Shown one piece after another: positions 38,780 to 50,463 of a DNA stretch of 64,000 nt. The stretch spans positions 4,932 to 68,931 of the forward strand of contig CASFSV010000007.1 in assembly GCA_949297415.1 (NCBI GenBank), written 5' to 3'. The notes under the pieces were generated by a model. The model was not told the origin of the DNA, ran no database searches, and saw only the letters and a list, made by a program, of their open reading frames with translations. Made by a program: the position numbers and the translations under genes. Numbering within the stretch: the stretch's first letter is position 1; every line of letters begins with the position of its first letter. The DNA is from an uncultured Alphaproteobacteria bacterium (GTDB taxonomy: Bacteria > Pseudomonadota > Alphaproteobacteria > RF32 > CAG-239).

Positions 38780-40426
38780 ATGTCATGGATTAATATTAAA
38801 GATTACCAATTTGAAAAAGATACATATATGAATGCGGCAAAAGTTGACGAAGAAATCTCATCGTTAAACCAACATAATATTGAAAAATTTAGTTTTGAAT
38901 TTCAAAATACTGTTGTTGATGATGTTTTGTTAAGAGAATATGCCAAAAGTCTTGCTGAACCAATACAACAAGGCGAATTTGTATATTGTGACAGCATTGA
39001 GCAACTTAAAGAATTTTGCCAACTGTTTATGATGAGACTATCAGATGTTTTTTTAAGATTAAGAAATCCTGATATTGAAAAAGTAGGCAGTTCTATCCAA
39101 AACTTAATAGCTCATTTTGATGAATATGTAAAAGAAACAGGAGATAATTATAAAACTTTCCAATCAGTAAAGGAATTTCTTATTAGCCTTCCATCTAAAG
39201 AAGAAGACCCTATAAGGGTTAGAGATGAATATTTAGATCAATATTACCCTTATTATGCTGATGCTCTCAAAGCATTCTTGTCCATTTTAGCGACAATATT
39301 CAACTATAATTTAAAACAGCCCAATTTACCACCTGAGGAGTTAAAGTTATACGAAAAAAGAGGATATAGTCGCAATTTTATAGCCAATGATGAACGCAAA
39401 TTAAAAACGTTTTTGGCTGATTTTGAGAAAGAATATTGTTTTGCAAAACAAGAGCCTTATTTAACTTTTGAAAATCCTTGTGTAGACATAGAGTTAAAAT
39501 CTCTGGGATTTAACAATTTATGCTTACATCTAAAAAATATGAAAATTGCTTCTGGGGATGAGAATGTTAGCTTATTTGCGTTTATTGATTATGTAGATAT
39601 CAGGACGGTAATTTTTGAAAATTGTTACTTCAGCGGAGCAGAATGCCTGTTTCTAAGAAGTAAATCTTTTATGTTCAAAAATTGTACTTTCAATTGCAAA
39701 CTTAATTATTGGGAAAGGGGGTTCGCTAGAAACTTTCAAACAATAATAAGTTTATTAAAATTTGAAAACTGTACATTCAATGATAACTTTGAGATTGATA
39801 AAATACAAAAGGGATGCTATTCAGCTATTATTTTGAGAAATTGTACTTTTTCAGAACAGGCAAATTTTTCGTTATCCAATATATCCAAATTGAAAATTAT
39901 TTTCAGCAATACTATTTTTGGTGGTAAGGTATCTTTTTCGGACATACACTTTCATTATGGACAGTTTTGTAATATCATATTCTTAAATGAATTTAGAGTT
40001 AAAAACATTACGTTTACTACTCATGTTGATTTTAAGCAGATTGTATTTTCAGCAAACGTTGTAAAAACTATGAGTAATTCTATCCGCTCATTTGTAAAAG
40101 CATTAGAAGATAATGGGTTTAATGATTATGCCGCAGAATTGGCTGAATTTTATTTAAACGATTTAAATAGTGCTAAAAAACAAGAAGAATTTGACATTGC
40201 TGCGCGTTCAAACTGGCTCAATATCAAGCAAACGGCAGCATTTTTAGGGATTTCATACGCCACCCTGCTCGCCATGCGCAAAGAAGATAAGGCCGACGGT
40301 ATCCGCCGCATTCCCTACATCGGCGAAGGCAAAAGCTCCCGCTACTATCTCCCCCTCCTCGAAGCCTACAAAAGCAGGGATATGGATTTGGTTAATAAAC
40401 TGGCAAAAAAAATAGAGGGGAAGTAA
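38780..40426 (+). CDS. chimeric protein: unknown N-domain + pentapeptide-like beta-helix repeats + C-terminal Xis/AlpA-type HTH
   Basis: Repeats of F(E/K)NCTF...F every ~20-25 aa (aa 285-430). C-terminus NIKQTAAFLGISYATLLAMRKED...IPYIGEGKSSRYY resembles excisionase/MerR-type HTH_17. Confidence 0.6.
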   Translation: MSWINIKDYQFEKDTYMNAAKVDEEISSLNQHNIEKFSFEFQNTVVDDVLLREYAKSLAEPIQQGEFVYCDSIEQLKEFCQLFMMRLSDVFLRLRNPDIEKVGSSIQNLIAHFDEYVKETGDNYKTFQSVKEFLISLPSKEEDPIRVRDEYLDQYYPYYADALKAFLSILATIFNYNLKQPNLPPEELKLYEKRGYSRNFIANDERKLKTFLADFEKEYCFAKQEPYLTFENPCVDIELKSLGFNNLCLHLKNMKIASGDENVSLFAFIDYVDIRTVIFENCYFSGAECLFLRSKSFMFKNCTFNCKLNYWERGFARNFQTIISLLKFENCTFNDNFEIDKIQKGCYSAIILRNCTFSEQANFSLSNISKLKIIFSNTIFGGKVSFSDIHFHYGQFCNIIFLNEFRVKNITFTTHVDFKQIVFSANVVKTMSNSIRSFVKALEDNGFNDYAAELAEFYLNDLNSAKKQEEFDIAARSNWLNIKQTAAFLGISYATLLAMRKEDKADGIRRIPYIGEGKSSRYYLPLLEAYKSRDMDLVNKLAKKIEGK

Positions 40427-40507: not shown

Positions 40508-42013
40508 ATGCCACAAAAAATAAAAAAAACACTTACAATTCAAGAAATTGCTATTGCAAAAAAATTGCATGCCAATGGGAAAAATAATCAAGAAATAGTT
40601 GGTATTATAAACACTAAAAGAGCGAATCCTTCTTTACATATTAACAGTGGCAGAATTAGTGAGATTATTAACGGCCAAAAAGGTCAAGATATTCCTATAG
40701 CGACTGAAGACGAGCTACATGCATTTCTATCGTCATCCATTCCTCAAGAAGACACCTCTCCAATCTCTGAAAGTATCTTATTTCAGTTACTTAAAATCAA
40801 AAAAGGAACTATTAACTGTCTAGACATTGGAGAAAATGATACATTTGAATGCAAAGAGAATTTCAATACAGATATAAAATCTCTCATAAAACCATTAGTA
40901 TCATTTGCTAACAATAAGGGAGGTTATATTTTATATGGTGTTAAAGATGCTGTTTGGGAAATAATAGGGCTATCTGATAAAAAAATAGAGGCCTTTTCTA
41001 CTTGGGATCTAGAAAAATTAAGTGGAAGTCTTTTTGAATTTGCAGGATGTGGATTACGAATAGAAAAAACAACTTATGACATAGCGGGAAAAACAATAGG
41101 AGTTTTATATGTTTATAAAGCCTCTAAACGTCCTGTTATTATGAATAAACAAGATGGAGATATAGGAATTGGACAAATATACTATAGATATCCCGCCGCT
41201 AATAGACTTATTGGAAGTGTTGAACTTGGTGAAATAATTGAAGATCGCATAAACTCTATGATTTCAACTACTTTATCAAAACATATTGAAAACATAATTA
41301 AAAATGGCATAGAAAACACCGCAATATTAAATCTAAAAACTGGAGAAGTAGAAGGAAAATCCGGGAATTTTGTTATAGATGAAACATTATTATCTAAAAT
41401 TCAATTTATAAAAGAAGGAGAATTTGTAGAGAAAAAAGGGGCTCCGGCTTTAAAACTTATGGGGGATCTACATCCTATTACAACCTTAGCGGAAGTTGAG
41501 GTAGAAAAAGAAGTTGAAAAATCTATTACGATAAAAGGAGTAATAGAAGCGTTTGTAAAACAAACAGTAATTGCGGCTCCTATGGAATATATAAAAGCAA
41601 TAGCTTTAGATACTGGAAAATGGATTCCAATTTACTACTTCATAAAAGAAAGCAAAAAAAGTAGTGATGAAATAAAAGAGTATTTACTAGGATTAAAAAA
41701 GAGCGAAGGCAAAAATTATCCTCAAAAAACTATTGAGTTACTTGATTCTGACAAGATTCCGAATTTTGGAAGAAATAGTGAAAAGACTAAAATGAAAGAT
41801 ATAAAAGAAAAGACCATCATAATGATTAACAATAAAGAAGAAGCTCTTTCCTTTCTAGCTAGTGTTGGAATACTTACTAAAGACGATATAGATCTTAAAT
41901 ATTGCTTAAAGATTCTTCAGCAAATCATAAAGGACTTCTGGACAGATAAAGAAGTTCAATCCAAAACAAAATATTGTTGTGCCTATTTAGATCGATTATT
42001 TTTTAAACAATAA
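40508..42013 (+). CDS. HTH + AlbA_2 (Schlafen-like, divergent AAA) domain protein
   Basis: ENDTFECKENFN...LVSFANNKGGYILYGVKDAVWEIIGL matches the AlbA_2 putative DNA-binding domain core. N-terminal HTH-like segment. Confidence 0.6.
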   Translation: MPQKIKKTLTIQEIAIAKKLHANGKNNQEIVGIINTKRANPSLHINSGRISEIINGQKGQDIPIATEDELHAFLSSSIPQEDTSPISESILFQLLKIKKGTINCLDIGENDTFECKENFNTDIKSLIKPLVSFANNKGGYILYGVKDAVWEIIGLSDKKIEAFSTWDLEKLSGSLFEFAGCGLRIEKTTYDIAGKTIGVLYVYKASKRPVIMNKQDGDIGIGQIYYRYPAANRLIGSVELGEIIEDRINSMISTTLSKHIENIIKNGIENTAILNLKTGEVEGKSGNFVIDETLLSKIQFIKEGEFVEKKGAPALKLMGDLHPITTLAEVEVEKEVEKSITIKGVIEAFVKQTVIAAPMEYIKAIALDTGKWIPIYYFIKESKKSSDEIKEYLLGLKKSEGKNYPQKTIELLDSDKIPNFGRNSEKTKMKDIKEKTIIMINNKEEALSFLASVGILTKDDIDLKYCLKILQQIIKDFWTDKEVQSKTKYCCAYLDRLFFKQ

Positions 42014-42102
42014 TTAGTGAAAAAAATGATTTCTTAAGAGATTTTCAAGGTATTTTGAATAGGATAAAATAAGTTATATTAAATTTTGATTAGGCCTTAA
42101 GA

Positions 42103-44232
42103 ATGACTGTAAATAGAAATAACATTGATATATTATGGGATGATAATCCTATTGACATTACACAAGAAGCAAATTTTATATGGAGCATTGCCAATAAACT
42201 TCGAGGCTCATATATGCCGGATAAATACGGCGACGTTATCATTCCTATGACTATTGTAAGAAGATTAGAATGCGCACTAGTTGATACAAAAGCTAAAGTT
42301 ATTGCCAAATATAATGCTCAACATGATTATCCTGCACAAGCAATGTATAGGATTACAGGCTATCAATTTTATAATACCAGTGGTTTTGACTTGACAGAAC
42401 TATGTAATGACCCAGAACATATAGCATCAAATTTCAAATCATACATCTTGGGATTTTCATCCAATGTGCAAGATATTTTTGCTGAATTGGAGATGAATAA
42501 ACATATTGATAAAATGAATAAAGATGGGTGCTTATATCAAGTTGTTAAAGCCTTTTCAGAACTGGATTTAAGCCCGAAAACGTATGATAGTATAAAGATG
42601 GGCTACATTTTTGAAAATCTTATTGGAAGATTCTTTCAAAATGTGGATGCTGGTCAGTATTACACTGGTCGCGATATTATTAAAATGTGTGTTTCTGTGC
42701 TGATTTCCGAAGGTTGTGATGATATTTTTGATGATGGCAAAATTATTACGGTTTGCGACCAAGCCTGCGGAACTGGTGGTATGTTATCAACAGCATACAG
42801 TTATTTAAAGCATTATAACCCAACAGCAGATGTAAAACTGTTTGGACAAGAATTTATGGGCGTGTCTTATGCTGTTGGTCTGGCTGAAATGTTGATTAAA
42901 GGACAAAATGCGGATAATTTTAAGCATGCGGATACATTTAAGGAAGATTGCTTTCCGAATATGAAAATGCGTTTCCTGCTGGAAAATCCGCCCTTCGGAA
43001 CCCCGTGGTCTGGTAAAGATGCTAAAGCAGGACAGGAAGATGCCGTAAAAAAAGAATATGAAAAAGCACCATTAGGCAGATGGGGTGCAGGTTTGCCAAG
43101 TGGTGGCGATTCACAACTTTTGTTCTTGCAGTCAGCTATCTCCAAGATGGATGATAAGCTTGGCCGAGCAGCTATCATTGAAAATGGTTCGCCTTTATTC
43201 AGTGGTGGAACATCATCAGGGGAATCCCAAATCCGAAGATATTTGTTGGAACATGATTTAATTGAAGCAATTATACAGTTGCCAACAGATTTATTCTACA
43301 ACACGGGAATTACAACCTATGTGTGGATTTTATCAAAGAATAAGCGTTCTGAACGCAAGGGGAAGATTCAACTAATTGATGCTTCAAACATCTACCACAA
43401 GTTAAGAAAACCATTGGGTAATAAGAAAAATGAATTTTCTCCGGAGGATAGAGCAGAAATAACAAAACTATATACCAACTTTAAAGAAAATGAATTTTGT
43501 AAAATCTATAATAATGAAGAATTTTTATATAGAGAATATACTGTGATGCAGCCGCTACAAAGAAGTTATGCTATTACGCAAGAACGGATTGATGATTTGC
43601 TTTCCGATGGAACTTTGAGTTACCTTTATGATAAAAGCAAGGTCTATGAACTTGAAAACCAACCTGAACTTACTGGAAAAGATAAGAATAAATTAGATAA
43701 CTTCAAACAAAACAAGCCAATTTACGATACAATTATTCAAACTCTTCAAGATAATATCTCGGATAAAATTTGGATGAATCCAGAAACATTCACACCAGTA
43801 TTAACCAAGATATTAGAAAAAGCTTTGCACGATAGCATCGGTAAGAAAGATATAGAAAAGCTGGTAAAAGGCCTATCCAAAATGGATAAATCCGCCGATA
43901 TTCAAAGAGATAAAAAGGGAAATATTATTTATGATAAGGATAGCAAAGATATTGAAATTGTGAAATATCAAGAAAATATTTCAGATTATATAGCAAGAGA
44001 AGTTTTACCGCATTTGCCGGATGCTAAAGCTTTTTTTGAAGCAGAAGATGAAAATGCCATATTTGAAGAAGACTGCGGTCGCAAAATCATAAAAATTGGG
44101 GCGGAAATACCATTTACTCGCTATTTTTACAAATATCAGCAACCAACACCATCAGAAGAATTGAAAAAGAAGTTTTTAGAACTTGAAAATTCTGTTGATT
44201 CCAAGATTAAAAAACTATTCGGAGCAGCATAA
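42103..44232 (+). CDS. hsdM: Type I restriction-modification system methyltransferase subunit
   Basis: AdoMet motif VCDQACGTGGML and catalytic LLENPPFG. N-terminal HsdM_N-like IWSIANKLRG. Confidence 0.9.
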   Translation: MTVNRNNIDILWDDNPIDITQEANFIWSIANKLRGSYMPDKYGDVIIPMTIVRRLECALVDTKAKVIAKYNAQHDYPAQAMYRITGYQFYNTSGFDLTELCNDPEHIASNFKSYILGFSSNVQDIFAELEMNKHIDKMNKDGCLYQVVKAFSELDLSPKTYDSIKMGYIFENLIGRFFQNVDAGQYYTGRDIIKMCVSVLISEGCDDIFDDGKIITVCDQACGTGGMLSTAYSYLKHYNPTADVKLFGQEFMGVSYAVGLAEMLIKGQNADNFKHADTFKEDCFPNMKMRFLLENPPFGTPWSGKDAKAGQEDAVKKEYEKAPLGRWGAGLPSGGDSQLLFLQSAISKMDDKLGRAAIIENGSPLFSGGTSSGESQIRRYLLEHDLIEAIIQLPTDLFYNTGITTYVWILSKNKRSERKGKIQLIDASNIYHKLRKPLGNKKNEFSPEDRAEITKLYTNFKENEFCKIYNNEEFLYREYTVMQPLQRSYAITQERIDDLLSDGTLSYLYDKSKVYELENQPELTGKDKNKLDNFKQNKPIYDTIIQTLQDNISDKIWMNPETFTPVLTKILEKALHDSIGKKDIEKLVKGLSKMDKSADIQRDKKGNIIYDKDSKDIEIVKYQENISDYIAREVLPHLPDAKAFFEAEDENAIFEEDCGRKIIKIGAEIPFTRYFYKYQQPTPSEELKKKFLELENSVDSKIKKLFGAA

Positions 44233-44242
44233 GGAATAGCAG

Positions 44243-44887
44243 ATGGGTAATGATATGAAAAAAATAGGAAAAAATGCTGCTCTGGCACTATTAAGCCAAA
44301 TACCAATTGCATCTGCATTTAGTAAGTTTTTTGAAGATTTTGTGCAAGATGGTTGGCAAGAACGCATAGATTTATGGAAAGAAGAAGTGATAAAGCGTCT
44401 GTCTCAATTAGATGCTGAAATGGAACAAAAAATAAGAGAAACAACTAATTTTGCCAATATATTGGCATCAGCTCAAAGAGAGGCCTTGGAAGATATAGAA
44501 GAAAATAAAGTTTCTCTTTATGCAAATGCGGTTATAAATGCTATCAAAAATGAAAGTATTGATGACACAAAGAAACATATCTTTTTGAATATACTGCGTG
44601 ATTGCACATTGTTACATATTGAAGTACTTAAAGAGATTTCAAAATCAAAAGGTCCTATTGTTACAATTCGTCCTAATGGTTTCCACTCCGAAAATCCATT
44701 GTTTTTTGACTTGAAAATGAATTATAAGGATAAAGACCTTTTAGAGGCCATTATTAAAGGCTTGTCAGAACATCATTTGACTTATGTAGCCGTAGGGAAA
44801 ATTGGTGCAACTGAACCGACTATTATAACAGATTTAGGCAAAGAATTTTTAGCTTTCATTGCTGAACAGGAGAATAACGGTGACTAG
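44243..44887 (+). CDS. hypothetical helical protein embedded between hsdM and hsdS
   Basis: 214-aa ORF with AAGGAA RBS, 10 nt after the hsdM stop. Its stop overlaps or abuts the hsdS start. Contains one Rx5H string (RDCTLLH). No family confidently recognised. Confidence 0.6.
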   Translation: MGNDMKKIGKNAALALLSQIPIASAFSKFFEDFVQDGWQERIDLWKEEVIKRLSQLDAEMEQKIRETTNFANILASAQREALEDIEENKVSLYANAVINAIKNESIDDTKKHIFLNILRDCTLLHIEVLKEISKSKGPIVTIRPNGFHSENPLFFDLKMNYKDKDLLEAIIKGLSEHHLTYVAVGKIGATEPTIITDLGKEFLAFIAEQENNGD

Positions 44888-44891
44888 AGCG

Positions 44892-46160
44892 ATGAAAGAT
44901 AGTGGAATTGAGTGGATTGGTACTATTCCTGTGAACTGGAAAATTGAAAAAGGAAAATATTGCTTATCATATTTAGAAAAGCCTGTTAAACAAACAGATG
45001 AAGTTATTACTTGTTTCAGAGATGGTGAAGTAACACTTCGTAAAAATCGTAGAGAAGATGGATTTACGATATCTGATAAAGAAATCGGTTATCAGGGTAT
45101 TGATGCCGGGGACTTGGTAGTTCACGGAATGGATGGTTTTGCAGGTGCTATTGGTATTTCTGATTCAAGGGGGAAAGCATCTCCTGTTCTGAATGTTTTG
45201 GATACAAATCAAAACAAAACCTATATAATGTATTACTTGAGAAGTATGGCATATAACGGTGTGTTCCTTGCTTTAACAACTGGTATAAGAGTGAGAACAT
45301 GTGATACAAACTGGAGAAAATTAAAAGAATTGCCTTATCTTTTACCCGACAGAGAAGAACAGGATAAAATTGTTAATTGTATTAATCGGCAAGTATCTCA
45401 AACAAATGAGATAATTTTGGGCATCCAAGAACAGATAACCACATTGGAAGAATACAAGAAATCAGTTATTACCGAAGCTGTTACTAAAGGGCTTAATTCA
45501 AATGCCCCAATGAAAGACAGCGGTATTGAATGGATAGGCAAAATCCCTGCAAATTGGGAAATAAAGAGAACAAAATATCTAGCATCTTCAATAAGTAAAG
45601 GAAATGGTATTACTAAAGAAGATGTAAATAGTGATGGAAATATACAATGCATTAGATATGGAGAAATATACTCAAAGTATAAAAATTGCTTTTTGAATGC
45701 AATATCAGCAACCAATTTGAATAAAATATCCTCTCCAAAATATATATTTAAAGGTGATATATTATTTGCAGGAACAGGAGAATTAGTAGAAGAAATAGGC
45801 AAAAATATTGTTTATTTAGGAGATAAACCTTGTTTAGCAGGTGGAGATATTATCATATTAAGACATCATCAAAATTGTAAATTTTTGAATTATGCACTAT
45901 ACAGTTCTTATGCTCAATTACAAAAAAGTATAGGGAAAGCAAAGTTAAAGGTTGTTCACATATCTTCAACTGACATAGGAAATATATATGTCGCATTACC
46001 ATCTCCGACAGAACAGCAAGAAATTGCAGATTATCTTGATAGTCAATGCTCTCAAGTTGAGGAAGCTATTGCAGACAAACAAAAGCAGATTGAAACGCTT
46101 GAAGAATATAAGAAAACCTTAATTTATGAATATGTTACCGGTAAAAAGGAGGTTGCATAA
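44892..46160 (+). CDS. hsdS: Type I restriction-modification system specificity subunit
   Basis: Two target-recognition halves, each opening with MKDSGIEWIG.IP.NW.I. Conserved spacer helices ITTLEEYKKSVITEAVTKGL and IETLEEYKKTLIYEYVTGK. GTG 44880 is an alternative start. Confidence 0.9.
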   Translation: MKDSGIEWIGTIPVNWKIEKGKYCLSYLEKPVKQTDEVITCFRDGEVTLRKNRREDGFTISDKEIGYQGIDAGDLVVHGMDGFAGAIGISDSRGKASPVLNVLDTNQNKTYIMYYLRSMAYNGVFLALTTGIRVRTCDTNWRKLKELPYLLPDREEQDKIVNCINRQVSQTNEIILGIQEQITTLEEYKKSVITEAVTKGLNSNAPMKDSGIEWIGKIPANWEIKRTKYLASSISKGNGITKEDVNSDGNIQCIRYGEIYSKYKNCFLNAISATNLNKISSPKYIFKGDILFAGTGELVEEIGKNIVYLGDKPCLAGGDIIILRHHQNCKFLNYALYSSYAQLQKSIGKAKLKVVHISSTDIGNIYVALPSPTEQQEIADYLDSQCSQVEEAIADKQKQIETLEEYKKTLIYEYVTGKKEVA

Positions 46161-49132
46161 TGAATATTATCCAATCAGAGAAAGAGTATCAGGCATTTAT
46201 TTTAGATTATTTGCATAAGCAAAATGGTTATGTAATCCGCAAAAATGCTAACTTTGATAGATATAACGCTATGGATAAAGAGTTGTTGTTCAAGTTTTTG
46301 AGCGATACGCAACCAAAGCAAATGGAAACATTAAGAAAAATCTACAAATCTGATTTGGAGAATACCCTTATCAATTATATCAATAGCGAAATAAGCAAAC
46401 CAAAGAGTAGCTTATTATCTGTATTAAAGCACGGTATTGACATTGCAAACAGTGTCCATTTAGATTTTATGTTCACGAAACCTGCAACAAATTTTAATAA
46501 AGAAGCAACCAAGCAGTATGAGCAAAATATCTTCTCGGCAGCTGAAGAAATATGGGCAAATGATAAGGAAAGAGTTGATGTTGTTATCTTCTTAAATGGT
46601 TTTGCGATTATGTCCTTTGAATTAAAGTGCAATCATGCCGGACAATCTTATCAAGATGCTATCTATCAATATCGCACCGAAAGAACACCTACCAATCGCC
46701 TATTCTTATTCAAAAGTGGATGTTTGGTAAATTTTGCCATGGACTTAGAACGGGTCTATATGACTACAAAACTAGAAGGAGAATCGACATTTTTCTTACC
46801 ATTTAATATGGGAAATGGCGAAGGTGTTAATGCTGGTGCAGGAAACCCGATATTGGAAGACAAATATAGCGTTTCATATATGTGGGAAGATGTTTTACAA
46901 AAAGATTCTATTTTGGAGCTTATAAGCAAATTTATTCTCCTTGAAGTAAAAGAAAAAGAAGATGAAAATACAGGAAAGAAATCTATTAAAGAAAACATTA
47001 TCTTTCCAAGATTTCATCAGAGAGATGTATTGCATAAGGTTTTGAATGATGTTAGGGAAAACGGAACATCGCAAAACTATCTCATTCAACACAGTGCTGG
47101 TTCTGGCAAAACCTATTCTATTGCTTGGTTAGCACATCGTTTAGCTTCTCTGCATGATGAACAAAACAAAATTATTTTTGATAATATTGTGATTATTACG
47201 GATAGAATTGTTGTCGATAGACAATTACAAGATGCTGTAAAAAGCATTGAACACAAGTCAGGCGTTATTAGAGTTATGGATGATAAATGCAATTCATCAG
47301 ACCTTGCAACAGCTTTGAAGGGTAATACTAAGATTATTGCAACAACAATTCAAAAATTCCCTTATATTGTCAGCGAAGTTTCTAACTTAAAAAAGAAAAA
47401 GTTTGCCGTTATTATTGATGAAGCACATTCTTCTACGGCAGGTAAAGATATGATAGCCGTATCAAAGACTTTAGGTGCAGGTGAAATTCAGGACGAAGTA
47501 TCTACAGAAGATTTGATTGTAGAAGAAATCAATAAACACGGAAAACAAGTCAACGTTTCAGTATTTGCTTTTACAGCCACCCCAAAACCAACAACTCTGA
47601 ACTTGTTTGGTAGGGTTAATAGTAAGGGACAAAGAGAAGCTTTCCATATCTATTCTATGAAACAGGCCATAGAAGAAGGTTTTATTTTGGATGTTTTACA
47701 AAACTATACCACTTATGACACATATTATCGCTTGAACAAAGAAATTAAAGATGACCCAAAATGTAAAACAAATGCTGCAAAACGACAAATTGCTCGTTTT
47801 GTTGAATTACATGAAACTAACATCGCTCAAAGAATTGAAGTTATTGTGGAGCATTTCAGAACAACTGTTATGCAGGAACTCAATGGCAGAGCAAAGGCTA
47901 TGGTTATTACAGCTTCCAGAGAAGGTGCTGTAAAGTATTGCCAAGCATTTAAGAACTATATAAGCAAAAAGGGATATGAAGGTATTGATGCTTTGGTCGC
48001 ATTCTCAGGCAAAGTTACAATGCGAGAAGATGGAAAAGAATATACAGAAGCAGGAATGAACGGTTTTAGCGAAGACAAATTACCTAAAGAGTTTGAAAAA
48101 GATGATTATAAGGTTTTGTTAGTTGCTAACAAGTATCAAACAGGGTTTGACCAACCAAAACTTTGTGCAATGTATATTTTAAAGACTTTGAAGGGAGTAA
48201 ATGCTGTTCAAACACTATCAAGATTAAACAGAATTTGTCCACCATATAACAAGCAAACCTTCATTTTGGATTTTGTAAACAGTTATAAGGATATGGAGGA
48301 TGCTTTCTCCAAATATTATACTGTTACGCTGCTGTCCAATTCCGTAACACCTAACCAAATTTATGACATTGAAGTAAAAATTGATGGGTTCTGCATTATT
48401 GATCCTTCCGACATTGAAGCTGCAAATGATTTACTCTATAAAGATAATATTACTGCAACAGACAAGAAAAAACTAACATTTATATTCCAAAAGACCAAGA
48501 AATTTATAGAACAAATGGATGATGAAAAGCAAAAAGAATTTGTAACAACCTTAAAAGGTTTTGTCAGATTTTATGAGTTTTTGTTACAAGTTACATGCTT
48601 TGAAGATAAAGAACTCCACAAAAAGTATAATTTTATTACCTGTTTGCTTTCTTACATCAATATTAAACATGCTGGTGGAGGATTTAATTTAGATGGGAAA
48701 ATTCAGGCTATGAACTTTGTTCAGAAGAAGACAGGCGAACACAAGAAGACCAATATCAAATCTAATCCTATTGTTACATTGCCAACTGCAGAAACGCTTG
48801 TTTTGCCGGAAGATAAAGTTCAAAAACTTTCTGAAATAATTGCTCAAATCAATAATATGACTGGTAAAAACTATGACAATGATGTTGCGGTTAAAGCAAT
48901 GCTTCAGATTAGGGACATTATGCTAAAATCGGACAAGTTGAAAACATCAGCCAAGAATAACACAGTAAAAAACTTTGAGTTGGCTTATTTTGATAATGTA
49001 AATGATGCTTTGATTGAAGGATTATCGCAAAACCAAGATTTCTTTACCTTATTGTTAAATAATGATAATATAAAGAAAGAAATTCTCGGTATTTTTGTCG
49101 ATGAAATTTATAATAGTTTAAATAAAGCATAA
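46160..49132 (+). CDS. hsdR: Type I restriction endonuclease subunit R
   Basis: 990 aa with HSAGSGKTYS Walker A, IIDEAHSS DEAH box, QTLSRLNR motif VI and an N-terminal nuclease region. ATG overlaps the hsdS stop (ATAATG). Confidence 0.9.
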   Translation: MNIIQSEKEYQAFILDYLHKQNGYVIRKNANFDRYNAMDKELLFKFLSDTQPKQMETLRKIYKSDLENTLINYINSEISKPKSSLLSVLKHGIDIANSVHLDFMFTKPATNFNKEATKQYEQNIFSAAEEIWANDKERVDVVIFLNGFAIMSFELKCNHAGQSYQDAIYQYRTERTPTNRLFLFKSGCLVNFAMDLERVYMTTKLEGESTFFLPFNMGNGEGVNAGAGNPILEDKYSVSYMWEDVLQKDSILELISKFILLEVKEKEDENTGKKSIKENIIFPRFHQRDVLHKVLNDVRENGTSQNYLIQHSAGSGKTYSIAWLAHRLASLHDEQNKIIFDNIVIITDRIVVDRQLQDAVKSIEHKSGVIRVMDDKCNSSDLATALKGNTKIIATTIQKFPYIVSEVSNLKKKKFAVIIDEAHSSTAGKDMIAVSKTLGAGEIQDEVSTEDLIVEEINKHGKQVNVSVFAFTATPKPTTLNLFGRVNSKGQREAFHIYSMKQAIEEGFILDVLQNYTTYDTYYRLNKEIKDDPKCKTNAAKRQIARFVELHETNIAQRIEVIVEHFRTTVMQELNGRAKAMVITASREGAVKYCQAFKNYISKKGYEGIDALVAFSGKVTMREDGKEYTEAGMNGFSEDKLPKEFEKDDYKVLLVANKYQTGFDQPKLCAMYILKTLKGVNAVQTLSRLNRICPPYNKQTFILDFVNSYKDMEDAFSKYYTVTLLSNSVTPNQIYDIEVKIDGFCIIDPSDIEAANDLLYKDNITATDKKKLTFIFQKTKKFIEQMDDEKQKEFVTTLKGFVRFYEFLLQVTCFEDKELHKKYNFITCLLSYINIKHAGGGFNLDGKIQAMNFVQKKTGEHKKTNIKSNPIVTLPTAETLVLPEDKVQKLSEIIAQINNMTGKNYDNDVAVKAMLQIRDIMLKSDKLKTSAKNNTVKNFELAYFDNVNDALIEGLSQNQDFFTLLLNNDNIKKEILGIFVDEIYNSLNKA

Positions 49133-49166
49133 TTAGGAAAAAGTATAAAAAAGAAAGGTACGCGAT

Positions 49167-49835
49167 ATGACTAAAGAGCGCGGAATTATATATATTTTAA
49201 CTAACCCAATGTTTCGAGAAGACGTTATCAAAATTGGTATAACTAAAGATTTACCCATGCGATTGAAACAACTTGGTTGCGAAACAGGGGTGCCTTGTCC
49301 GTTTGAATGTTATGTCGCATATGAAATAGATAATTATAAACAAGTAGAAAAGATTATGCATAGCATTTACCGTGGTGTTGAACGGCATACAGATAAAGAA
49401 CATAAGAAAAAAGAGTTCTTTCAAGTACATCCTAGCCGAGCTGATGAAGTTTTATCTCAACTTGCCGAATTGTTAAATGGTAAAAAAGTTATTATTGATA
49501 ATCGTAAAATTTATACTTTGGAACAACAACAGATTCTTGAAGAAAGTACAAAGGCGGCCGAAAAAAATCAAATTGCTAAAAGATTTAAATTTCAAGATTA
49601 TAACATTCCTATAGGAGCTACTTTAATTTTTATTAAAGATGATAAAATTCGTTGCAAAGTTATTGAAGACAACAAGGTCAATTATAATGGAGAAATATTC
49701 AGTTTAAGCCGCCTAACAATGAATTTGATGCAAGAACGAGGTTATTTAGGTAAACATTATAACGGCTATAATTATTGGCTATACAATGATACAATCCTAA
49801 CTGATATGTCTCCATCTACCGAAGAACAAGATTAA
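49167..49835 (+). CDS. GIY-YIG (T5orf172/MUG113-type) domain protein with DUF4357-like C-terminal domain
   Basis: GIIYILTNP...VIKIGIT core and EFFQV. C-terminal FKFQDYNIPIGATLIFIKDD...VNYNGEIFSLSRL. Paralogue at 60372-60977. Confidence 0.65.
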   Translation: MTKERGIIYILTNPMFREDVIKIGITKDLPMRLKQLGCETGVPCPFECYVAYEIDNYKQVEKIMHSIYRGVERHTDKEHKKKEFFQVHPSRADEVLSQLAELLNGKKVIIDNRKIYTLEQQQILEESTKAAEKNQIAKRFKFQDYNIPIGATLIFIKDDKIRCKVIEDNKVNYNGEIFSLSRLTMNLMQERGYLGKHYNGYNYWLYNDTILTDMSPSTEEQD

Positions 49836-50239
49836 CTAGACGGATATCTCAATTTTCCAAGTTCCTCCGCTAGTCTACCAGCCCTATCCTTTTCTAGCTC
49901 GTATTGTTGTTTGTAGTATTCGGCGTCGCGTTGATAGTTCAGGACTTCTTGGGCGAGAATGCGTTTATCTATGTTGCTTAAATCAACGCAAGAAATGGTT
50001 AAGTAGGGTTTGCCGGAGAGGTTTAGCACTCTGCGGCCGTGGATATCCGTTGATTTTAGAAGGTATCCCTCGCGGATAAGTTCGTTTACCATCACTTTGG
50101 CAGAATTAACCGTCAATCCTAGTGCGGCAGCGATTTTATCGTTCCCCATAAAAAATGTATGATTATTGTTGGTTTTGTATTTAATGAAATCCAATAGCAA
50201 ACGTTTGGTTATGGATAGCTCAGCTTTGCTTTTGCTCAT
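49832..50239 (-). CDS. small winged-helix DNA-binding protein with C-terminal coiled coil (Rep/regulator-like)
   Basis: IAAALGLTVNSAKVMVNELIREGYLLKS HTH. The iteron-like array lies 80-225 nt upstream of its start. Confidence 0.55.
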   Translation of the reverse strand: MSKSKAELSITKRLLLDFIKYKTNNNHTFFMGNDKIAAALGLTVNSAKVMVNELIREGYLLKSTDIHGRRVLNLSGKPYLTISCVDLSNIDKRILAQEVLNYQRDAEYYKQQYELEKDRAGRLAEELGKLRYPSS

Positions 50240-50319
50240 GTTTTCTCCTCATAAAAATTTGTCTCACAAATATTTATTAAAGAAGGACACAGGATTTTCA
50301 TTTGAACAAAATCCTCGCT

Positions 50320-50463
50320 GGAAATTGTTATTTCCACCTGTTTTAGATATCGGAAACTGTTATTTCCGGTTTTCTTGAAACGGAAACTCTTATTTCCACC
50401 GATGGAAATTGTTATTTCTGTTAACGGAAGTCGTTATTTCCCGAAATGGAAGCCGTTATTGCC
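50320..50463 (+). repeat. six iteron-like 16-bp repeats GGAA(A/G)nnGTTATT(T/G)CC
   Basis: Copies start at 50320, 50352, 50382, 50404, 50426 and 50448, with spacing 32, 30, 22, 22 and 22 bp. Each unit is itself an imperfect palindrome (GGAAAT...ATTTCC). Confidence 0.8.

Follow-up and report, generated by a model that had tools for sequence, protein, structure and literature searches.

The window, that is, the whole 64,000-nucleotide stretch of contig CASFSV010000007.1 that was analyzed, carries a Type I restriction-modification (R-M) operon of four packed reading frames on the forward strand (42103-49132). The first is hsdM (42103..44232), which encodes a 709-aa protein with HsdM_N and N6_Mtase domains (Pfam matches at 1.8e-21 and 1.8e-56). 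It is followed by orf214 (44243..44887; 214 aa plus stop), which we regard as an Abi-alpha-like embedded gene on the basis of its reading frame, its family, hhalign comparisons and an AlphaFold model. Then come hsdS (44892..46160; 422 aa; Methylase_S at 1.2e-13), with two target-recognition domains, and hsdR (46160..49132; 990 aa), with HSDR_N, ResIII, SWI2_SNF2 and T1R_D3-like matches. HsdM, HsdS and HsdR are all strong matches to their Pfam families. The order and tight coupling of these genes had been proposed in the initial annotation, and its description of the three junctions was accurate: the hsdM stop codon (TAA, 44230-44232) is separated by a 10-nt spacer (GGAATAGCAG) from the orf214 ATG at 44243; the orf214 stop codon (TAG, 44885-44887) abuts the hsdS start, with a gap of 4 nt to the ATG at 44892; and the hsdS stop codon shares 1 nt with the hsdR start (TAATG, 46158-46162). 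An alternative hsdS start, GTG at 44880, would overlap orf214 by 8 nt. We chose the ATG from a junction alignment with a congeneric operon, in which both hsdS genes share the start MKDSGIxW. A promoter and terminator scan of positions 41800-50400 performed no better than on shuffled sequences and returned nothing within the operon. The source assembly (1.56 Mb in 52 contigs) contains a single copy of orf214.

Several genes flanking the operon recur elsewhere. A 548-aa pentapeptide-repeat protein (38780-40426), with a weak, below-cut-off C-terminal HTH_17 match, has nearly identical counterparts (phmmer E ~1e-296) upstream of hsdM in several other loci from metagenome-assembled genomes (MAGs), among them L001 (4538-6187) and L011 (1125-2774), where hsdM is of another type and other cargo is embedded; this gene may be a conserved edge of the hsd island. 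Between it and hsdM in the window sits a Schlafen/AlbA_2 gene (40508-42013; PDC-S50-like). Directly 3' of hsdR lies a T5orf172/GIY-YIG gene (49167-49835), a full-length match to PADLOC PDC-S57 (3.7e-58), with a weaker relative close to an orf214 homologue in locus L016. A 135-aa HTH_36 protein, encoded on the reverse strand (49832-50239) and convergent with hsdR, is kept at the same position (E ~1e-66) in L001 (16133-16543), L011 (11385-11795) and L069 (352-762), and seems to mark the second fixed border of the island.

Comparison with a congeneric genome (G791) reveals the same operon without orf214: an hsdM of the same long type (710 aa) is followed after 4 nt by hsdS, and a different, 223-aa gene is located between hsdS and hsdR. 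In the junction alignment, the two operons become homologous again 12-15 nt upstream of the hsdS ATG, a point that falls in the final codons of orf214. The R-M enzyme therefore does not need orf214, and we rejected the possibility that its product is a core subunit of the Type I system. Conversely, orf214 does not need the operon, since close homologues with 71-75% identity and the same type of variable domain (see below) are found at L008/L020 and L009, with no hsd gene within 9 kb; this is evidence against an obligate dependence on the Type I enzyme. At L008 and L009, the DNA of the gene itself is 67-90% identical, and just beyond its ends identity drops to about 40%. orf214 is thus a facultative, mobile insert.

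The hsdS-hsdR spacer constitutes a second cargo slot in related operons (L001 11543-13114; L068 5234-5905; L069 3781-4635). Its contents vary: a PIN_12 gene and a 142-aa gene in L001-3, a 129-aa gene in L004, the 223-aa gene in G791, and genes of 131 and 151 aa in G796. PIN_12 is the sole cargo gene there with a known family. On Planktothrix plasmid p4 (L034 8472-9037), a small ORF and a MazF/PemK toxin gene are inserted between hsdM and hsdS, in the same slot as orf214.

Sequence searches with orf214 retrieved 105 homologous clusters at E<=1e-3, none of which has a name or a Pfam domain, and a second search returned 358 representatives at 50% clustering. This conservation indicates that orf214 is a real gene. 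Almost all named records are MAGs of gut or rumen Alphaproteobacteria, and the family is sparse, being present in 5 of the 401 genomes sampled across the class. Direct scans of orf214 against Pfam, NCBIfam, PADLOC 2.0.0 and PHROGs yielded noise only, the best matches being Mst1_SARAH, YbjQ_1 and BrxA at 13.8 bits. A sequence profile search of the PDB returned only hemolysin E (E 0.35), and tblastn against 50,697 phage records found no match to orf214. By these searches the family is unannotated. Across 137 members of the wider family, the best kept residues are K89 (135 sequences), H125 (132), R41 (129), T/S122 (129), N99 (125) and N95 (118). One member, at L012 9001-9678, has an in-frame TAA at codon 19 (LAVLS*IPIVSAF) and is therefore either a pseudogene or the source of an N-terminally truncated 192-aa product; the N-terminal module is also missing in several database members (P0087, P0088).

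The protein can be divided into four parts. Residues 1-35 (44243..44347) form a hydrophobic helix-Pro-helix module that exists in three allelic types family-wide. In the window protein its Kyte-Doolittle maximum is 1.39 (residues 12-30), below the usual transmembrane threshold of 1.6, a value that 40 of the 137 members exceed; P21 is nearly invariant. Residues 36-132 (44348..44638) make up a conserved helical core bearing R41, K89, N95, N99, T122 and H125. Residues 133-195 (44639..44827) form a variable, winged-helix-like alpha/beta domain of low sequence identity, apparently a swappable cassette, and residues 196-214 with the stop codon (44828..44887) a conserved C-terminal helix (TxLGxEFLxFI), the downstream conserved flank of this cassette, in which G199, F202 and F205 are at least 90% conserved over the 137 sequences. 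An AlphaFold2 model built with the 137-member alignment (pLDDT 85.6, pTM 0.78) has seven helices (4-17, 21-54, 58-66, 70-83, 89-102, 108-120 and 123-134) followed by a beta-beta-H-H-beta-beta-H succession, so the protein is not all-helical as first supposed. The computed pI is 5.2 for the whole protein, 4.8 for the core and 8.0, that is, mildly basic, for the variable domain. A Foldseek search of the PDB with this model gave no match with E <1: winged-helix proteins of the MarR/PadR/HxlR type matched the C-terminal part weakly, at E 0.02-0.4 with a first, poorer model and >1 with the better one. In BFVD, the matches were two unnamed phage proteins that aligned over the full length (prob 0.95 and 0.85, TM ~0.43).

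Family members are mosaics of these parts. Many homologues are 70-85% identical to the window protein over residues 36-132 and 70-100% over residues 196-210, with an identity of 6-15% over residues 133-195, where nucleotide identity falls to about 40%. Residues 1-35 are either 66-89% or about 20% identical, depending on type. Clustering of the 96 close homologues produced a single core cluster, 14 variable-domain types and three N-terminal types. N-terminal types 0 and 1 are each paired with variable types 0, 1, 6 and 7, so that all four combinations of N0/N1 and V0/V1 are present; so many combinations require recombination. The arrangement recalls the shuffling of HsdS target-recognition domains, where variable domains likewise lie between conserved stretches and are re-assorted among alleles, but this is an analogy only, as HsdS has no sequence relationship to the orf214 family.

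A HEPN-type RNase had been suggested on the strength of a single Rx5H string, RDCTLLH, at residues 119-125. The protein has a second Rx4-6H string, RPNGFH, at 143-148, and since 35% of shuffled versions of its sequence contain one or more such strings, the motif by itself is no evidence. The 41 closest homologues all keep R119 and H125; over the 137 wider members, position 119 is acidic in 73 (D in 60, E in 13), R in 33 and N in 8. In the model the two residues do not share a helix, R119 being close to the end of helix 108-120 and H125 near the beginning of helix 123-134. No HEPN family scored above threshold in orf214 or in the 41 scanned members, three of which have sub-threshold matches to HEPN_Toprim_N (best E 0.0064), and HEPN structures are absent among the PDB matches of the pLDDT 85.6 model. 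Membership of the HEPN superfamily was rejected, as neither a conserved Rx4-6H motif nor a HEPN fold or profile match was found. The supposed absence of the NTPase domain of PrrC and RloC was verified: orf214 has neither a Walker A motif nor any match to an NTPase family, and is therefore not PrrC- or RloC-like. We likewise rejected membership of that group, whose N-terminal ABC/Rad50-like NTPase with Walker A has no counterpart in these 214 aa. orf214 shares with PrrC and RloC its placement within an hsd operon and the notion of a back-up defense, a comparison of position only; it differs from them in lacking the ABC-type NTPase domain, the Walker A motif and the HEPN domain, in lying between hsdM and hsdS, and in belonging to a family that is not restricted to hsd loci.

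A relationship to Abi-alpha (PF14337, DUF4393) emerged from profile comparisons. orf214 itself has no Abi_alpha hit in Pfam (gathering cut-off 29 bits), and a genome-level scan was also negative. Sub-threshold matches occur in 5 of 41 members (best 3.7e-4); the best family member for Abi_alpha, P0104, scores 18.7 bits (E 0.0019) against the cut-off of 29. Ten representatives of the wider family and the Vibrio and Planktothrix homologues are below the Pfam thresholds of both Abi_alpha and DUF2806, so there is no transitive link through thresholds. As a reference we aligned nine Abi_alpha proteins above the Pfam cut-off, taken from 401 genomes of the phylum. Against this alignment, hhalign gave a probability of 80.3% for the close family (alignment A1) and 87.6% for the wide family (alignment A3; E 3.5e-6), the latter over 140 collinear columns that extend from residue 71 to the C-terminal TxLGxEF motif. 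Controls with reversed and eight column-shuffled Abi_alpha alignments remained at or below 0.4% (P >=0.14). Profile-profile comparison thus supports a common ancestry with bona fide Abi_alpha proteins.

The published phenotypes of this group are those of abortive infection. Abi-alpha (EF2833, from prophage 6 of Enterococcus faecalis V583) is a prophage-borne single-gene abortive-infection protein, and E. faecalis cells infected in its presence lyse about 10 minutes early (PMC6356687); in a phiNM1 lysogen, no prophage protein is more abundant than Abi-alpha (bioRxiv 10.1101/2025.10.23.684294). Belisama, a DUF2806 protein, causes strong, unrecoverable culture lysis and is toxic on over-expression, and DUF2806 has been reported as remotely Abi-alpha-like (bioRxiv 10.1101/2024.07.02.601686). 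In our hands, Abi_alpha and DUF2806 (PF10987; 19 proteins) aligned with a probability of 73% (E 3e-5), whereas the orf214 family and DUF2806 scored as an unrelated pairing (0.1%), and membership of the DUF2806/Belisama family was rejected on this ground. Because the Abi_alpha profile is matched and that of DUF2806 is not, the orf214 family is best described, at the level of sequence profiles, as a separate remote branch beside Abi_alpha that fails the Pfam membership threshold.

Proteins of the orf214 family resemble Abi-alpha in several respects: both are encoded by a single small gene of similar size, both have an N-terminal hydrophobic segment with a conserved Pro, and the collinear match of about 140 columns includes the motifs LYxNxxxxA, HxxF..L(T/S)P/x..xxL and C-terminal TxxGxxF. 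A prophage neighbor and defense neighbors of family members (see below) give the prophage and defense-island location typical of Abi-alpha. There are also differences. The near-invariant K89 and H125 of the orf214 family are not conserved residues of Abi_alpha, so that the biochemical activity may differ; the family is mostly found in Gram-negative gut Alphaproteobacteria; it is often embedded in restriction operons; and it has a cassette-like variable domain. With Belisama, which resides in a Vibrio cholerae integron cassette, the likeness lies in single-gene abortive defense and in the fact that one orf214-family member is also a Vibrio integron cassette, in spite of the lack of direct profile similarity. 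The lone occurrence of that member in an integron cassette is compatible with abortive infection by a single gene, as is known for EF2833.

The genomic contexts of family members were surveyed in part of the family, a small set of related, phylogenetically clustered and non-independent MAGs, in which roughly 7 of the 19 distinct loci lie within or adjoin a Type I operon and most others are located beside other defense genes. The gene lies directly behind hsdM, with gaps of 1-10 nt, and ahead of hsdS in the window and in L001-4, L010, L011, L015 and L069; these make up at least six distinct loci, in which two types of hsdM are represented. In L001-4 and L015, two tandem paralogues behind hsdM are followed by a 313-aa gene, and in L069 a single copy is followed by a 320-aa gene; these 313-320-aa genes are PDC-S42-like. 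On a Planktothrix plasmid, a 325-aa relative sits just upstream of an hsdM-x-MazF-hsdS-hsdR operon. Beyond Type I systems, the family gene is found 1 nt behind GmrSD and beside a Cas9 locus, upstream of a 226-aa gene in the vicinity of CBASS, Type III R-M and Fic, within an island of Hachiman and Type II R-M genes, and next to PD-T4-7. In L064, a weakly HEPN-like gene overlaps it from upstream, and in two diverged loci it precedes and overlaps a SIR2_2-like gene, the two partners being 41% identical. One member adjoins a phage tail tube gene in a prophage, and another is a Vibrio integron cassette whose array also contains DUF3265 ORFs.

Two of these contexts deserve mention in their own right. 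The pairs at L017 8929-10666 and L023 7001-8678, each an Abi-alpha-like gene overlapping the start of a SIR2_2-like gene of 335-343 aa, are a candidate for an undescribed two-gene defense system. In the Hachiman/Type II R-M island (L005 7729-8654), an 81-aa ORF without known family, 26 nt upstream of the family gene, is possibly a small partner gene.

The survey fits the principle of 'guilt by embedding' that is documented for defense genes (bioRxiv 10.1101/2024.01.29.577857; PMC11411939). TgvAB in VPI-2 (PMC11411939) and the HEC/PDC candidates (bioRxiv 10.1101/2024.01.29.577857) are examples of defense genes embedded in R-M, BREX or DISARM operons, to which orf214 is comparable as optional cargo in a slot of a Type I operon; the orf214 protein family is distinct from these and absent from PADLOC-DB 2.0.0. 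The notion of an embedded defense accessory, with which the analysis started, is supported by these contexts and by the fact that the one known relative detected is an abortive-infection protein, although not for the HEPN kind of effector.

We incline, with some reserve, to the view that orf214 is probably an autonomous Abi-alpha-like defense gene riding in a restriction operon. By the comparisons above, it is no HEPN RNase and is dispensable for the R-M enzyme. A divergent, horizontally mobile relative of Abi-alpha would have dropped precisely into the hsdM-hsdS spacer, where it would borrow the transcription and translational coupling of the operon and travel with it. Its winged-helix-like domain, which alleles exchange through recombination in the conserved flanks, would be the specificity or sensor part and would recognize a phage component, while the constant output part would consist of the acidic core and the hydrophobic helix-Pro-helix at the N-terminus. 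Recognition of phage would release this constant part, and the infected cell would be killed or lysed, so that orf214 may provide a second line of defense behind restriction. This lytic, possibly membrane-directed, output is proposed on the model of Abi-alpha and Belisama, both of which cause lysis. Several observations speak against this autonomous Abi-alpha-like reading: orf214 and the ten wider members fail the Pfam gathering score, K89 and H125 are not conserved in Abi_alpha, and the N-terminal hydrophobicity of the window protein stays below the transmembrane threshold. Furthermore, the recurrent tight pairing with SIR2-like, HEPN-like, hsdM and GmrSD genes could mean that the protein works with a partner, and the counts that support a defense context were obtained from MAGs that are related to one another and lack phylogenetic independence.

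A further reading, possible though rather unlikely, is that of a programmable Abi protein with a constant killing core and a swapped winged-helix-like sensor cassette, the latter exchanged at its two conserved flanks as are the recognition domains of Type I HsdS. Placed behind hsdM or GmrSD, such a protein would guard the restriction enzyme and trigger lysis in response to phage anti-restriction factors or a failure of restriction.

We consider it unlikely that orf214 is a PrrC-style guard, kept inactive on HsdM/HsdS and freed when an Ocr- or Stp-like anti-restriction protein disables the enzyme. PrrC itself is a precedent (PMC3710099; bioRxiv 10.1101/2024.01.29.577857), and the tight placement behind hsdM in several loci with two hsdM types, the equally tight placement behind GmrSD and the position next to a Type I operon on a cyanobacterial plasmid would all be accounted for. 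The function of such a guard would depend on the surrounding R-M system, however, and the homologues at L008/L020 and L009 carry the same variable type with no hsd gene within 9 kb, other members exist as lone integron cassettes or in prophages, and orf214 has no NTPase regulatory domain.

No better placed is the idea that the protein is a sensor or adaptor for a neighboring effector (a SIR2-like NADase, a HEPN-like RNase, HsdR or GmrSD) and not an effector itself. The hypervariable domain would suit a sensor; the SIR2_2-like pairing, with overlapping starts, has been kept between diverged loci; and the upstream overlap in L064 and the 226-aa or PDC-S42-like genes that follow the family gene elsewhere point in the same direction. 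Yet no partner is common to all loci, the neighbors in the window are R-M subunits only, one member is a single-gene integron cassette, and Abi-alpha and Belisama act alone (PMC6356687; bioRxiv 10.1101/2024.07.02.601686).

A DNA-binding regulator of the restriction operon, akin to a controller protein and acting through the winged-helix-like domain, is quite improbable. The H-beta-beta-H-H-beta-beta-H topology of the C-terminal part, its MarR/PadR/HxlR-type matches and the mildly basic pI of the variable domain would be in keeping with such a role, but these matches are weak and exceed E 1 with the better model, the protein is acidic overall, and the same gene occurs in unrelated operons, prophages and integron cassettes. 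In addition, the domain that would read DNA comes in 14 unrelated types, whose exchange is not accompanied by a corresponding change of operon, and the orthologous operon of G791 works without orf214. Finally, a minimal HEPN-type RNase toxin using R119-x5-H125, for which the invariance of both residues in the closest homologues, the broad retention of H125 and the three faint HEPN_Toprim_N matches could be invoked, is hardly credible and largely refuted by the replacement of R119 across the wider family, the frequency of the motif in shuffled sequences, the separate helices and the lack of HEPN profile and structure matches.

The finding is incremental and introduces no new principle, since the embedding of defense genes in Type I loci is already documented. 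Its interest comes from the nature of the relatives: Abi-alpha-type proteins are validated single-gene phage defenses, and the orf214 family offers three handles on this superfamily. The first is the set of residues kept over the wide family (R41, K89, N95, N99, T122 and H125); the second is that a hypervariable domain subject to recombination can be told apart from a constant core, the former being the obvious candidate for phage sensing; and the third is the repeated lodging of the gene directly behind restriction genes. Together they may provide a route to dissect the sensor and effector parts of the superfamily, and orf214 would add an unannotated family to the defense genes that lie within R-M operons, here those of little-studied gut Alphaproteobacteria.
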